Shown here one piece after another: positions 252 through 49,610 of a DNA stretch of 64,000 nt. Location of the stretch: assembly GCA_965227515.1 (NCBI GenBank), contig CBDDFZ010000001.1, positions 256,001 to 320,000 of the forward strand, given 5' to 3'. The first letter of the stretch is position 1. Every line of letters starts with the position of its first letter. A program made the position numbers and the translations under genes. Below the pieces are notes generated by a model, which did not search any database, was not told the DNA's origin, and worked only from the letters and a program-made list of their open reading frames with translations. Source of the DNA: Alphaproteobacteria bacterium (GTDB lineage: Bacteria; Pseudomonadota; Alphaproteobacteria; CALKHQ01).

Positions 252-602
252 TTGAGCACCGCAATCACCGAACGCCTGCGCGCGATCTGCCTGGCGCTGC
301 CGGAGGCGACCGAGAAGGAGGCGTGGGGCGACCCCACGTTCCGCATCCGCGACAAGATCTTCGCGATGGAGAAGCGCGGCGACGGACGGGTCTCGATCTG
401 GTGCAAAGCGGCACCCGGCAGCCAGGAGATCCTGGTCGGCGCCGACCCCGAGACCTTCTTCGTGCCGCCCTATGTCGGCCACAAGGGCTGGGTCGGCATG
501 CGGCTGGACAACGATCCCAACTGGGACGAGGTCGCCACCGTGGTCGGGCGCAGCTACGCGCTGATCGCCCCGAAGAAGTTGGCCGCGTTGGTCGAGACAT
601 GA
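252..602 (+). CDS. MmcQ/YjbR family protein
   Basis: Motifs LALPEATE, WGDPTFRIRDKIFA, FFVPPYVGHKGWVG, SYALIAPKKL. Confidence 0.85.
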   Translation: MSTAITERLRAICLALPEATEKEAWGDPTFRIRDKIFAMEKRGDGRVSIWCKAAPGSQEILVGADPETFFVPPYVGHKGWVGMRLDNDPNWDEVATVVGRSYALIAPKKLAALVET

Positions 603-606
603 CGCA

Positions 607-692
607 CGTAGCCAGGGTGGAGCGGAGCGGAACCCGGGGTCCTCGTCGGCTGGCGCCGAACCCGGGTTGCGTTGCACGCCACCCGGGCTACG
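607..692. repeat. GTAG-type REP doublet (palindromic), copy 1
   Basis: CGTAGCCAGGGTGGAGCGGAGCGGAACCCGGG...CCCGGGTTGCGTTGCACGCCACCCGGGCTACG between convergent genes; related copies at 12533 and 14410. Confidence 0.8.
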
Positions 693-4280: not shown

Positions 4281-5765
4281 ATGAAGACCAGCGTGCTGAA
4301 GGCCACGCTCGATGCGGTATTGGAGTCCCAGGCCGTCATTGAATTTCAGATGGATGGAACGATCCTAACCGCGAATGCGAATTTCCTCGACGCGATGGGC
4401 TATTCGCTGGACGAGATCAAGGGCAAGCACCACAGCATGTTCGTCGATCCGGCGGAAGCGAACGGAGCGCCATACAAGGCGTTCTGGGAGAGCTTGCGCC
4501 GCGGCGACTTTCAGGCCGCGGAGTTCATGCGGGTTGCCAATGGTGGCCGGACGATCTGGATCCAGGCCGTCTACTGCCCAATCAAGGACTCGCGTGGCAG
4601 GCCGACCAAGGTGGTGAAGTTCGCCACCGACATCACCGCACGCAAGCTGGAGAACGCCAACTATCAAGGACAGATCGAGGCCATCGGCAAGTCCCAGGCG
4701 GTGATCGAGTTCGAGTTGGATGGCACGATTATTACGGCCAACCAGAACTTCCTGGCCACGCTCGGCTACACCCTTGATGAAATCAAAGGCAAGCACCACC
4801 GTATGTTTGTCGACCCGGCCTACGCCGGCTCGGCCGAATACCACCAGTTCTGGGACAATCTCGGGGCCGGGCGATATGACGCCGGCGAGTACAAGCGCAT
4901 GAAGAAGGACGGTGGCGAGATCTGGATCCAGGCCAGCTACAACCCGATCAGCGATCCGATGGGCAAGCCGTTCAAGGTCGTCAAGTACGCGACCGATATC
5001 ACCAAGCAGGTGCTGGCGCGCCAGGAAGCCGATCGGGTCGGCAAGATCATCGATGCCAATCTGGAACAGATTGTGCAGAGCGTCACCAACGCCAACCTGC
5101 AGTCCGCCTCGGCCAACGGTGCTTCGGACCAGACCCTGACGACCGTTCAATCGATCGCCAGCGCCACGGAAGAGCTGGAGGCCACCGCGCGCGAGATCGC
5201 GCAATCCATGGTGGTCTCGCGCAGCGAGGCCGAGAAGGCGATGGCGGAGACCAACGCGACCGACACGTCGACACAGGCGTTGACGAAGGCCGCTGAGTCG
5301 ATGACCAACATCGTCAAGATCATTCAGGACATCGCCAACCAGATCAATCTGCTGGCCCTGAACGCCACCATCGAGTCCGCGCGCGCGGGCGAGGCCGGCA
5401 AGGGATTTGCCGTCGTTGCGTCCGAGGTCAAGTCGCTGGCCAACCAGGTGGCGTCCGCGACCGAGCAGATCACCGACGAGATCGCCGGCGTTCAGTCGGT
5501 CTCGGCCGAGGTGGTCAATCGTCTCAACGCGATCAAGCACGCGGTCGAATCGGTACAGACGAGTGTCACTGGCACGGCCAGCGCCTCCGAAGAGCAGAGC
5601 ATGACGATCCGCGAGATCGCCTCGAACATGCAGACCGCGTCCTCGGCTGTCAGCGACACCAGCGACGGGCTGAAGGGCGTCAGCCAGGCGATCGAGGAAG
5701 CCAACGCACTCGCCGACGAAGGCATCCGCCTTTACCGGGAGATGCAGTCCCAGCAAGCCGCCTAG
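4281..5765 (+). CDS. Soluble methyl-accepting chemotaxis protein with two PAS domains
   Basis: Two SQAVIEF..DGTI..AN.NFL PAS repeats; [34 protein letters not shown] signalling domain; no TM segment. Confidence 0.93.
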
Positions 5766-41565: not shown

Positions 41566-41761
41566 GGGGAAGGTTGTAGCCTGGGCCAGTGTGGGGTCGG
41601 GTTCAGGGTTCTTAATACGCACCGGCGCCTATATTGATGTGCAGCATGGCGCAAGAAATTGCACATGCGGCACATGGCCCCGGTCGCGCCAGGGCCGGTT
41701 GAGCGCGGGCGGCGGCTATCCATACTGAGAGTCGGGGGGCGGCGCAAGCGGGGTGAGAGGC

Positions 41762-42523
41762 ATGCAGGGCAATACCGCACAGCACGACAACGGCACCGTC
41801 GACGCCAACGAGGCGGCCAAATTCGCCGCCATCGCCGCCGAATGGTGGGATCCGAACGGCAAGTTCCGGCCCTTGCACCGGTTCAACCCGACCCGGCTGG
41901 AGTTCATCCGCGCCCGGGCCTGCAATCATTTCGTCCGCGACCCGGCGCGGCTGGACGCACTGGCCGGGCTCAAGGTGCTCGACATCGGCTGCGGCGGCGG
42001 GCTGATCGCCGAGCCGATGGCGCGAATGGGCGCCGAGGTGACCGGCATCGACGTGACGGCGCGCAGCATCGCGGTCGCCCGCCACCATGCCGAGGCGCAG
42101 GGGGTCGACGTCACCTACCGCGAGGCGACGGCGGAGGCGCTGGCCGAGGAAGGGGCGCGCTTCGACCTGGTGCTGACGCTGGAAGTCGTCGAGCACGTGG
42201 CCGACGTGGACCTGTTCCTGCACGCCGCCGGCAGCCTGGTGGCACCGGGCGGCATGCTGATCGCCGCTACCCTGAACCGGACCAAGCGCGCCTTCGCCTT
42301 TGCCATCGTCGGCGCGGAATACGTGCTCGGCTGGCTGCCGCGCGGCACCCACGACTGGCGCAAGTTCGTGAAACCGTCGGAGATGGCGCGCGGGCTGCGC
42401 ACGGCAGGGCTGTCGCCCGTGGAGGTGACGGGCGTCGTCTACAACCCGCTGTCGGGCGAATGGCGCCTCAACCCGCGCGACGTGGCGGTCAACTACATGA
42501 TGGTCGCGACCCGCCCGGTGTGA
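41762..42523 (+). CDS. ubiG: Ubiquinone biosynthesis O-methyltransferase
   Basis: WWDPNGKFRPLH, LDIGCGGG, EVVEHV, PRGTH. Confidence 0.95.
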   Translation: MQGNTAQHDNGTVDANEAAKFAAIAAEWWDPNGKFRPLHRFNPTRLEFIRARACNHFVRDPARLDALAGLKVLDIGCGGGLIAEPMARMGAEVTGIDVTARSIAVARHHAEAQGVDVTYREATAEALAEEGARFDLVLTLEVVEHVADVDLFLHAAGSLVAPGGMLIAATLNRTKRAFAFAIVGAEYVLGWLPRGTHDWRKFVKPSEMARGLRTAGLSPVEVTGVVYNPLSGEWRLNPRDVAVNYMMVATRPV

Positions 42524-42570
42524 TTTCGGCTGGCCGGCCCTGCTCGTCGGCACTAGACTGCGTTTGCCTA

Positions 42571-42719
42571 TCCAAGTGCGGCTAGGGTTCCGTCACAGCG
42601 GCGCAAGACCGTCGCTGTGGGCCTGGACCGAGCGCCGTTATGAGCCGACGTCTCCAAGAGCACCGCTTTGGCGACACCGCGGCAGACACCTTAAGGACCA
42701 AAAGGCCAGGGGGGTTGGA
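42571..42719 (+). ncRNA. ykkC-family riboswitch, subtype-2-like variant
   Basis: AAGTG-CGGC-TAGGGTTCCG...CTGGACCGAGC-GCCG...ACACCTTAAGGACCAAAAGGCCAGGGGG, with closing helix TCCAA/TTGGA; ends 47 nt before the EamA ATG. Confidence 0.8.
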
Positions 42720-42766
42720 CGGGCGCGCTGACGCGCGCCTGCAACCCAAAGCCCCTGAGGTGGCTC

Positions 42767-43624
42767 ATGTCTGTTCCTGGCCTGCTGCTCGTTCTTGCCG
42801 CCGCCATCTGCCACGCGACCTGGAATTTCCAGGTCAAGAGGATCGGCGGCGGACCCGAACTGGTCTGGCTGTTCTCGGTCATCAGCACGGTCGTCTATCT
42901 GCCGATCGCCGTCATCGTGGTCATCGTCGACGAACCGGCCTTCACCGGCTGGCAGTTGGCGTTCATTGCCGGCAGCGCATGCCTGCACATGGCCTATTTC
43001 CTGCTGCTGCAACAAGGTTACCGGCGGGGCGACCTGTCGCTGGTCTACCCCACGGCGCGCGCCACCGGCCCGCTGCTGTCGACAGCGTTCGCGGTGGTCG
43101 TGCTCAGCGAGACGCTGACCGTCCAGGCTGCCATCGGCGCGACAGTGGTCGTCGTCGGCGTGGTGTGCCTGAGCGGCGGACTGCGGCGCGGGGCCCGCAA
43201 GCTCGCGATCTCGCTCGGCTTCGGTGTTGCCATCGGCTGCCTGATCGCGACCTATACGGTTTGGGACGCCTATGCGGTCACCGCGCTGATGGTGCCGCCG
43301 CTGCTGATGGACTATGGGTCGGGCGCATTGCGCGCGGCGGCGCTGGCGCCCTGGGGCATTCGCCGCTGGGAACAGGTCAGGCGGCACTGGCGCGACCACC
43401 CGGTCGCCGTGCTCGCCATCGCGCTGTTCAACCCGCTGGCCTACATCCTGGTCCTGTATGCGCTGACCTTCACGCCCGTGGTCTACGTGGCGCCGACACG
43501 CGAGCTCAGCGTGGTGATCGCGGTCATCATGGGGTCTGTGCTGCTGGGCGAGGGCGACCTTCGCCGCCGCCTGCTGTGGGCGACCGTCATCCTGGCCGGC
43601 GTCAGCCTGCTGGCAACCGGATAG
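42767..43624 (+). CDS. EamA/DMT family transporter
   Basis: HATWN, GYRRGDLSLVYP.AR, APTRELSV; about 10 TM in two repeats. Confidence 0.88.
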   Translation: MSVPGLLLVLAAAICHATWNFQVKRIGGGPELVWLFSVISTVVYLPIAVIVVIVDEPAFTGWQLAFIAGSACLHMAYFLLLQQGYRRGDLSLVYPTARATGPLLSTAFAVVVLSETLTVQAAIGATVVVVGVVCLSGGLRRGARKLAISLGFGVAIGCLIATYTVWDAYAVTALMVPPLLMDYGSGALRAAALAPWGIRRWEQVRRHWRDHPVAVLAIALFNPLAYILVLYALTFTPVVYVAPTRELSVVIAVIMGSVLLGEGDLRRRLLWATVILAGVSLLATG

Positions 43625-43748
43625 ATCGGGATCAGCTTACGCTGAATCTGCCCCAGCCCTCTCCCCCACCCGGCCACCCAGCAGGATACTCTCGTGGGTG
43701 GCCGGGTGGGGGAGAGGGTCGGTGCCGACTCAAATGATCATGCTCTAG
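43622..43748 (+). mobile_element. MITE/RIME-like element, family B copy 1
   Basis: 127 bp TAGATCGGGATC...GATCATGCTCTAG with central hairpin CCCTCTCCCCCACCCGGCCACCCA/TGGGTGGCCGGGTGGGGGAGAGGG; inverted copy at 50627-50753. Confidence 0.8.
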
Positions 43749-49143: not shown

Positions 49144-49199
49144 CGACCGGGCGGCTCCCGTGAGTTTCTGCGGGCGCGCCGGCGGCCGCGCCAAATCAG

Positions 49200-49477
49200 T
49201 GGGGGGCTTCTGTTGCCCGGCGCCCCCCGAAACCGCGCTTACCTAAATTTAGGCAGCGAGTGCGATTTCGTTATCGTTCGCACCTAGGTTTTGGCCCGAT
49301 AACGGCGGTACCATGCCGGGCGAAAGCACTGTCTTTACACGCACGTCGATCCTGTTTCGCCCCCATGATGCGCCCTGGAAACCCGGGCGGATAATGGTGG
49401 AGGCGCCGGGTACTGCCCCCGGGTCCGCAACGCTTATTTCACAGACCGTTTATCGCCATAGCCGAGCAAGCCCGGCA
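49200..49477 (-). ncRNA. ssrA: Two-piece (circularly permuted) tmRNA; tag (A)ANDNEIALAA
   Basis: Acceptor piece ends ...GCAGTACCCGGCGCCTCCACCA at 49395; coding piece starts GGGGGCGAAACAGGATCGAC at 49364; tag ORF 49281-49249; TATAAT at 49488-49483. Outer ends approximate. Confidence 0.95.
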
Positions 49478-49610
49478 GTAAGATTATAAAGGACGTTTTG
49501 CGGTGATTTAAAGGCCCGAGGGCGTTCGGCGGGCCGAAATGCGATTCGGCACGCCGGGACTCGCATTGCTATAGTCGCCACCCGTTCCGCCGCAAGATCA
49601 CGAGTCGCCC

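Follow-up and report, generated by a model that had tools for sequence, protein, structure and literature searches.

A structured leader RNA between ubiG and an EamA transporter gene

The subject of this study is a leader RNA in a stretch of 64,000 nucleotides (nt) from an Alphaproteobacteria bacterium (contig CBDDFZ010000001.1, positions 256,001 to 320,000), referred to below as the window. The gap between ubiG and the gene for a transporter of the EamA/DMT type measures 243 nt and holds the entire RNA, a ykkC-type aptamer at 42566-42724 (+) that consists of helices P0, P1, P1a, P1b, P2 and P3 and lies 43 nt upstream of the transporter gene. A preliminary description of the window had named the two flanking genes and listed the ykkC elements between them. 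Both genes are recovered by family models, and every listed element was found in its place when checked against the window sequence. The features of the locus are as follows.

41753-42523: ubiG (TIGR01983, 275.6 bits against a cut-off of 103)
42566-42570 (+): 5′ flank GCCUA, in which CC 42567-42568 is nearly invariant
42571-42575 (+): 5′ strand of P0, UCCAA, partner of 42715-42719
42574-42592 (+): 5′ core, AAGUGCGGCUAGGGUUCCG
42576-42578 (+): conserved P0-P1 junction, GUG
42579-42637 (+): P1 with its internal loop, CGGC 42579-42582 pairing with GCCG 42634-42637; aligns to the RF00442 consensus
42582-42592 and 42623-42634 (+): conserved ykkC internal loop, CUAGGGUUCCG and CUGGACCGAGCG
42593-42621 (+): P1b hairpin, a stem of 10 base pairs (bp) with a CAAGAC loop
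42594-42603 with 42610-42619 (+): strands of P1b, CACAGCGGCG and CGUCGCUGUG
42623-42637 (+): 3′ part of the P1 region, CUGGACCGAGCGCCG
42633 (+): diagnostic C; GAGCG stands opposite consensus GAGAG in the cmscan alignment
42644-42683 (+): P2, GCCG 42644-42647 pairing with CGGC 42680-42683 around a 32-nt insertion
42684-42714 (+): 3′ domain, with AGACACC 42684-42690 and CACC 42687-42690
from 42686 (+): ACACCUUAAGGACCAAAAGGCCAGGGGG
42695-42696 with 42706-42707 (+): P3, GG pairing with CC, A-rich loop; followed by A 42708 and a G-run at 42709-42714
42715-42719 (+): 3′ strand of P0, UUGGA, partner of 42571-42575
42720-42741 (+): G+C-rich post-aptamer hairpin, 9 bp, UGAC loop, no U-tract
42742-42747 (+): CAACCC, complementary to GGGUUG 42712-42717 (end of the G-run and 3′ strand of P0)
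42751-42762 (+): stretch covering the Shine-Dalgarno (SD) sequence and the bases before it, GCCCCUGAGGUG, with GAGG at 42757-42760; complementary to CACCUUAAGGAC at 42687-42698
42767-43624 (+): EamA/DMT transporter gene, 285 amino acids (aa), phn_DUF6-related (PF00892, 66.6 bits)

The leader RNA is matched by the guanidine-I model below threshold

The preliminary description had proposed a run of the Rfam ykkC model as a check. That model, RF00442 (Guanidine-I), aligns over its full length (model positions 1-107) to 42571-42714 with a score of 30.5 bits. The E-value of this match is 8.8e-4 when 401 nt are scanned permissively and 2.9e-3 when the search covers all 5.5 Mb of the genome. Because this score is below the Rfam gathering score of 63 bits, standard annotation misses the leader RNA; a scan of the window at gathering level listed only a transfer-messenger RNA (tmRNA). 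A two-part pattern of the core has a single match in the window, and none of 100 dinucleotide shuffles contained it. We built a covariance model, R1, from six sequences, namely the window RNA and leaders of orthologues. R1 scores the family at 100-130 bits and canonical guanidine-I RNAs, which are followed by genes for NMT1-like binding proteins, at 20-35 bits. With RF00442 the guanidine-I copy in the same genome reaches 73.9 bits, and the leader-RNA family 30-39 bits. The two models discriminate in both directions and separate the family from guanidine-I.

The genome carries a single copy of the leader RNA. A canonical guanidine-I riboswitch that scores above the cut-off lies in the same genome at G000:C1:127616-127764 (+) (locus L002, 1501-1649), upstream of a gene for an NMT1-like ABC substrate-binding protein. 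Since this canonical copy is also present, the organism, to judge from the pocket residues described below, would keep two ykkC-fold switches with different pockets.

The RNA and the transporter form a two-part module

A protein search with the transporter returned eight orthologous loci, all 60-63% identical to it, from named alphaproteobacterial genomes and metagenome-assembled genomes. Collection of orthologue leaders had been suggested in the preliminary description; five of the eight (L005, L006, L009, L010 and L011) have a sub-threshold RF00442 match of 34.8-39.2 bits directly upstream. The RNA is missing upstream of the remaining three (L004, L007 and L008), which counts against the reading preferred below. 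We looked for a protein regulator beside two of these RNA-less orthologues and found nothing informative (SfsA and peptidase M24 at L008, MscS at L004).

The search was also made from the side of the RNA. The 5′-core pattern alone drew 80 metagenomic loci, all of which are matched by R1, at scores from 130 down to 32 bits. The count based on RNA alone takes L013 and L018-L097, which comprise 75 unique aptamers, 70 of them with enough downstream DNA; it excludes the controls L002 and L014-L017 (guanidine-I-type or weak), the loci found by protein and the five loci that are short downstream. An EamA-like open reading frame (ORF) lies immediately downstream in 63 of these 70 unique loci. Those that lack it are L062, L097, L075, L035, L083 (two copies) and L088; L097 precedes an MFS transporter and L075 a PF06983 protein, and the ORFs downstream of L035, L083 and L062 match no family and are probably not real. 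In all, 49 unique relatives precede a gene of the same transporter clade. When flanking genes were clustered, no neighbour beyond close pairs was common among 25 loci. For this reason, the RNA and the transporter are a self-contained two-part module found in varied genomic neighbourhoods, and synteny is silent on the ligand.

The leader RNA is rare among the reference genomes searched. R1 exceeds 100 bits only in the window's own genome (G000) and in G102 among 151 genomes sampled from the class, and only in G000 among 151 sampled from the phylum; a BLAST search of 60 relatives with the leader DNA returned the window's own genome only.

A few relatives are unusual in themselves. L083 has two related aptamer copies, at 5410-5533 (+) and 506-630 (-), near both ends of its contig, and neither is followed by a recognisable EamA gene. 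The 3′ domain of L071 is cut and its downstream transporter match begins at residue 89, L048 has a shortened 3′ domain that adjoins an ATG, and L026 has an insertion in P3; these three are apparently damaged copies.

Covariation supports the fold

From 93 R1 matches we kept unique rows followed by a tblastn match to the window's EamA protein of at least 50% identity starting no later than residue 20, which gave 41. Omission of L048, L026 and L053, which have aberrant or partial aptamers, and of L044, from a different sub-clade, left 37 unique sequences that run from the aptamer through the start codon (alignment A5, to which the counts below refer). Standard pairs fill 95.8% of the 919 cells of P0, P1, P1a, P1b, P2 and P3, compared with 20-43% when the 3′ partners are slid. 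Two-sided (compensatory) change occurs in 11 of 25 pairs, and the covariation score was reached by 0 of 500 shuffles. Specifically, P0 is paired in 95.1% of cells and has compensatory changes in three of its five pairs: one occurs as C-G in 23 sequences, U-A in 11 and U-G in 3, another as U-A in 27 and A-U in 6. In P1, 24 sequences have C-G and 13 have U-A at columns 16/79; P2 is paired in 97.3% of cells, with compensatory changes in two of four pairs, and pairs of both P1b and P2 vary on both sides. The post-aptamer hairpin is present in 37 of 37 sequences, again with compensatory changes (columns 170/179, for example, are U-A in 17 and C-G in 15). RNAalifold, unaided, recovers P0 (four of five pairs), P1, P2, P3 and the hairpin.

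P3 had been called atypical in the preliminary description, and this did not hold. The pair 42695/42707 (columns 137/149) is A-U in 22, G-C in 10 and G-U in 4 of the 37 sequences, so that the G-C of the window is typical of the family; what is unusual lies in the P3 loop and amounts to a single base, 42699, which is C in the window RNA, whereas 32 of the other 36 sequences have G and 4 have U. The core of the window RNA is ordinary for its family, and the true outliers are the extensions of P1b and P2. The P1b region, whose basal pairs covary, spans 29 nt (median 13, the longest of the 37) and the P2 loop 32 nt (median 4); together they make the distance from P0 to P0, at 149 nt, the longest of the set (median 105).

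The 5-nt stretch formed by the last two bases of P0 and the GUG junction reads AUGUG in 27 and AAGUG in 7 of the 37 sequences. In the 5′ flank, columns 2-3 are C in at least 90%. In 36-37 of the 37 relatives this CC (42567-42568) could pair with GG 42722-42723, at the foot of the post-aptamer hairpin, which would lengthen P0 at the expense of the hairpin base; the 37 relatives show no covariation for this pairing.

Two properties of the alignment weigh against taking these figures at face value. Thirty of the 37 rows were found with a pattern that fixes 25 core bases, and those columns are invariant by construction; in addition, the rows are kin, so that shuffle controls overstate significance. 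The informative pairs fall outside the 25 fixed bases, and the core loop sequence is also present in the seven rows found by other routes. We conclude that the leader RNA is genuine and conserved. A coincidental resemblance, or a decayed and non-functional relic, would fit the sub-threshold Rfam score and the three orthologues without RNA; with 49 unique relatives upstream of one transporter clade, compensatory change in P0, P1, P1b, P2 and P3 and a core pattern found in none of the 100 shuffles, it is already contradicted by the comparative data, and its probability is negligible.

Pocket residues point away from guanidine-I

One position is described as parting guanidine-I RNAs (A38 in D. 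dadantii numbering, A46 in Reiss numbering) from subtype 2 RNAs, which have a pyrimidine there (C49 in the phosphoribosyl pyrophosphate (PRPP) aptamer) and also at the position of the pocket-floor residue G67 (PMC5340920, PMC6031431). The window RNA has C at both diagnostic positions, 42633 and 42690, the latter where guanidine-I carries G67. The C at the C49-equivalent position is also found in all seven relatives that were recovered without the pattern. The RNA shares with guanidine-I the P1/P1a/P1b/P2/P3 architecture, the CUAGGGUUCCG loop and the A-rich P3 loop. In contrast, the Rfam consensus has GGUCCGAGAG and ACACGG, and the window RNA has GGACCGAGCG and ACACC instead; it also has the extra helix P0 and precedes an EamA gene where guanidine-I has a carboxylase, ABC or SMR gene. 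On three tested features, judged from the aligned residues, it would fall outside guanidine-I: guanidine-I calls for at least 63 bits with RF00442, A at A38/A46 and G at G67, and the window RNA has 30.5 bits, C and C.

We considered whether the RNA might still be a diverged guanidine-I switch that responds to guanidine or a closely related guanidino compound and controls an exporter gene. RF00442 is the sole ykkC-type Rfam family that matches, DMT and SMR transporters share one superfamily, and the ligand proposed for subtype 2d, which precedes EamA transporters, is a small, charged, toxic compound (PMC5912903). Set against this, the score is half of the gathering threshold, and both G67 and A38 are C here, when G67A alone is reported to cost about 200-fold in binding (PMC5340920). 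Furthermore, the subtype 2 RNAs that were tested are reported not to bind guanidine (PMC6003355), and the genome has a separate canonical guanidine-I element in a typical gene context. We consider a guanidine sensor very unlikely.

The window RNA has instead the marks of subtype 2, namely the ykkC fold, a pyrimidine at the C49-equivalent position and a P0 formed from the 5′ and 3′ tails; conserved tails that form P0 are described for subtypes 2a and 2b (PMC6031431). The preliminary description had recognised a ykkC fold of the non-guanidine kind with a P0, and the two C residues at 42633 and 42690, the covariation of P0 and the opposed scores of R1 and RF00442 bear this out.

The gene context points to orphan subtype 2d

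Published ykkC RNAs were sorted first by the C49-type position and then by the downstream gene (PMC6003355, PMC6031431). Subtype 2a, which senses guanosine tetraphosphate (ppGpp), is characterised by branched-chain amino-acid, glutamate synthase or natA genes and by an S-turn position (equivalent to G96) that is absent or not G (PMC6003355, PMC6031431). The window RNA has an EamA gene downstream and a run of six G residues after P3. Subtype 2b, which binds PRPP, precedes de novo purine genes, and subtype 2c, which binds (deoxy)nucleoside diphosphates, precedes NUDIX or HAD hydrolase genes; here the gene is again EamA, and no hydrolase occurs among the downstream genes examined. As in 2a and 2b, for which structures are available (6DLT for PRPP and 6DMC for ppGpp; PMC7609027), P0 closes the four-way junction, the C49 position is a pyrimidine and CACC stands where guanidine-I has CACG, and as in 2b a G is available at the S-turn position. 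Unlike 2a and 2b, the window RNA precedes a transporter and not purine, branched-chain amino-acid or glutamate genes, and it has a G-run in the 3′ tail and a predicted SD-sequestering helix rather than a terminator. Its alphaproteobacterial host also differs from those of 2a, which are described as mainly Firmicutes (PMC6003355).

Subtype 2d RNAs precede EamA (originally phn_DUF6) and TauE transporters and are listed with the ligand undetermined (PMC7266159, section 16); PMC5912903 gives the same gene association. The window RNA resembles them in its ykkC fold, its altered pocket residues, its downstream EamA/phn_DUF6 transporter and the lack of a known ligand. In addition to the PF00892 match, the top NCBIfam match of the transporter is TIGR03340 (phn_DUF6), full length at 109.5 bits and under the cut-off of 288, and the association with EamA extends to the 63 of 70 loci found by RNA. 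We saw no TauE-associated example among the relatives sampled, a sample biased by the search pattern. Under the published sorting scheme, such RNAs would have been filed as 2d. We therefore consider it likely that the window RNA is a non-guanidine (subtype 2) ykkC-fold aptamer of the class published as orphan subtype 2d. The preliminary description had proposed an orphan or new-ligand variant. The orphan character stands; since 2d RNAs upstream of EamA/phn_DUF6 genes are already in print (PMC7266159, PMC5912903), the RNA would be a new member of a known orphan class and not a new variant. That description had named 2d among the subtypes, yet it did not file the RNA there.

Two points weigh against this assignment. 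It draws on gene context and sorting logic rather than on a direct comparison with the published consensus. PMC5912903 calls the 2d consensus the one most like guanidine-I, and the covarying P0 and the two C substitutions of the window RNA are features described for 2a and 2b.

The class may also be less uniform than its name suggests. RNAs with the GGACCGAGCG core (L018-L097, alignment A4) split into several 3′-domain variants, one of which, for example, reads CAUCU..GGGAUAGAAGCC..GAGGAG instead of CACC..GGGGGG. The transporter genes that follow belong to a different EamA clade for each variant (best seeds L039/L070/L024, L031, L020 and L079/L040). Because of this pairing, '2d' may hide more than one specificity; that the RNAs lumped under the name are several classes, in which sister types with their own 3′ domains and EamA clades sense other compounds, is a possibility that we hold as rather unlikely.

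Nelson in 2017 and Sherlock in 2018 and 2019 reportedly described subtype 2d RNAs as orphan riboswitch candidates. A literature search found no ligand assignment for 2d; subscription papers and supplements may hold one. To our knowledge, 2d is the only branch of the ykkC riboswitches that is still unsolved, and the substrate of its EamA transporters is likewise unsolved. The locus offers a clean example: the RNA occurs once in a complete alphaproteobacterial genome, and a canonical guanidine-I switch is encoded in the same genome. As a probable member of 2d it is a good experimental handle and not a new kind of element. It also carries a warning, in that the Rfam Guanidine-I model at its gathering score misses this entire group of RNAs.

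The putative ligand pocket could pair with the Shine-Dalgarno stretch

In the 37 sequences the distance between P0 and the start codon varies little (37-55 nt, median 47). A scan of the window leader found no U-tract terminator or terminator-like site, in line with the lack of a U-tract noted in the preliminary description. In the window, 42687-42696 can pair with 42753-42762 at nine of ten positions, and in L063 the corresponding anti-SD helix reaches 13 bp (12 Watson-Crick and one G-U). Across the alignment, 70.4% of its cells are paired, with two-sided change in six of 13 pairs. The base in column 137 (42695) has two alternative partners, one in P3 and one before the SD sequence, and covaries with both (A/U/U in 15 and G/C/C in 7 of 37 sequences). 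The mean duplex energy is -12.5 kcal/mol for matched strands, -10.6 kcal/mol for mismatched species pairs and -4.8 kcal/mol for shuffled targets, and the matched mean was reached by 0 of 2000 permutations.

ACACC and P3 are described as belonging to the ligand pocket in all solved ykkC structures (PMC5340920, PMC6031431). Because they form part of the pocket, a ligand should release the SD sequence. We propose that, as long as no ligand is bound, the 5′ strand of P3 and the adjoining ACACC junction (42687-42698) would pair with the pre-SD and SD bases (42751-42762), and the G-run and the 3′ strand of P0 would pair with CAACCC 42742-42747 around the constant hairpin at 42720-42741, so that translation of the transporter would be blocked. 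With ligand bound, P3, the G-run and P0 would be held in the aptamer, the SD sequence would be freed and the transporter would be made. On this evidence we infer a translational ON switch, which would match the ON logic of the characterised subtypes. Translational control, as the preliminary description had proposed, is the best reading of the leader, and the helix that covaries is the one between ACACC/P3 5′ strand and the SD stretch. The model is explicit, backed by covariation and convertible to a reporter.

The competing helix favoured in the preliminary description was a different one, between the region of the G-run and the C-rich bases before the GAGG. It is energetically plausible in the window, at -14.7 kcal/mol, and it finds no compensatory change in the family. 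The pairing of the G-run with the C-run of CAACCC 42742-42747 is partial across the family: columns 156/190 and 157/189 hold in most rows, and 158/188 is unpaired in 24 of 37. The part that joins the G-run and the 3′ strand of P3 to the C-rich pre-SD bases (42707-42711 with 42753-42757) is paired in 83% of cells, by way of G-U pairs and with no two-sided change.

Some observations speak against our model of the platform. In the window, the G-run/pre-SD helix is slightly better than the anti-SD helix (-14.7 versus -13.1 kcal/mol), and constrained folds give -98.8 with the former and -96.2 with the latter; the former is the stronger of the two in six of the 37 sequences, the window included, and in G+C-rich members it may help to hold the switch OFF. 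Judged by secondary structure alone, the aptamer is less stable than the alternative folds by about 13-18 kcal/mol, so that the switch must depend on ligand, tertiary contacts or kinetics during transcription. Lastly, a scan of the leader found no promoter.

Alternatively, the aptamer could be real and its control mainly transcriptional, through Rho or through an intrinsic terminator made from the conserved hairpin. This would account for the presence of the post-aptamer hairpin in 37 of 37 sequences and for the short U-rich run that follows it in some relatives (such as L010, L056 and L009), and the characterised ykkC subtypes are transcriptional ON switches (PMC6031431). Against this, the window has neither U-tract nor terminator-like site, and the hairpin lies outside the aptamer, save for the possible 2-bp CC/GG extension, so that it would persist when ligand binds; what competes with P3, and covaries with it, is the SD stretch. 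We judge transcriptional control unlikely.

Pocket residues hint at a phosphate-type ligand

CACC is invariant in 37 of 37 sequences, although it lies outside the search pattern. By sequence analogy, G 42632 corresponds to G48 of the PRPP aptamer, C 42633 to C49 and CACC 42687-42690 to C75-C78. In the PRPP aptamer, G48, C49, C77 and C78 bind the 5-phosphate together with its metal, and in the ppGpp aptamer G48, A76 and C77 touch the 3′-pyrophosphate; in 2a and 2b, P0 extends the pocket for larger ligands (PMC6031431). The invariant CACC, this correspondence and the presence of P0 are the grounds for a speculative hint that the ligand could be of phosphate or phosphonate type and not a guanidine-like cation.

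Such a ligand could go together with an RNA that stands apart from the published 2d. The counterparts of the phosphate-contacting residues, the invariant CACC and the covarying P0 would fit, as would the description of 2d as the most guanidine-I-like subtype (PMC5912903), which suits the window RNA poorly, and the name of the nearest transporter family, 'phosphonate utilization associated'. The published sorting would nevertheless place such RNAs in 2d, and the residues are equated purely by sequence analogy. The G-run of the 3′ tail is not alignable to A101, A103, G104 and G105 of the PRPP aptamer, in which the tail residues A5, G6, A101 and G105 contact the pyrophosphate (PMC6031431). The phn_DUF6 match stays far under its cut-off, and no phn genes were found in the neighbourhood of the transporter. 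A phosphate-sensing class distinct from 2d is quite unlikely, and membership of subtype 2d is the reading we prefer.

Other features of the window

The ATG at 42767 is backed by the orthologue alignments, which begin at residue 1 of the transporter. An ORF of 365 aa in another frame, 42640-43737 (+), overlaps the leader and the entire EamA gene; because the orthologue alignments favour the 42767 start, it is probably an artefact of high G+C. A partial Metazoa_SRP match at 42718-42850 (+), seen only in a small permissive scan (20.1 bits against a cut-off of 70), covers the G+C-rich hairpin and the start of the gene and is taken as chance. The tmRNA gene listed by the gathering-level scan is of the two-piece (permuted) alphaproteobacterial form.

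49198-49515 (-): two-piece tmRNA gene (RF01849, 257.5 bits; RF04321, 160.5 bits)

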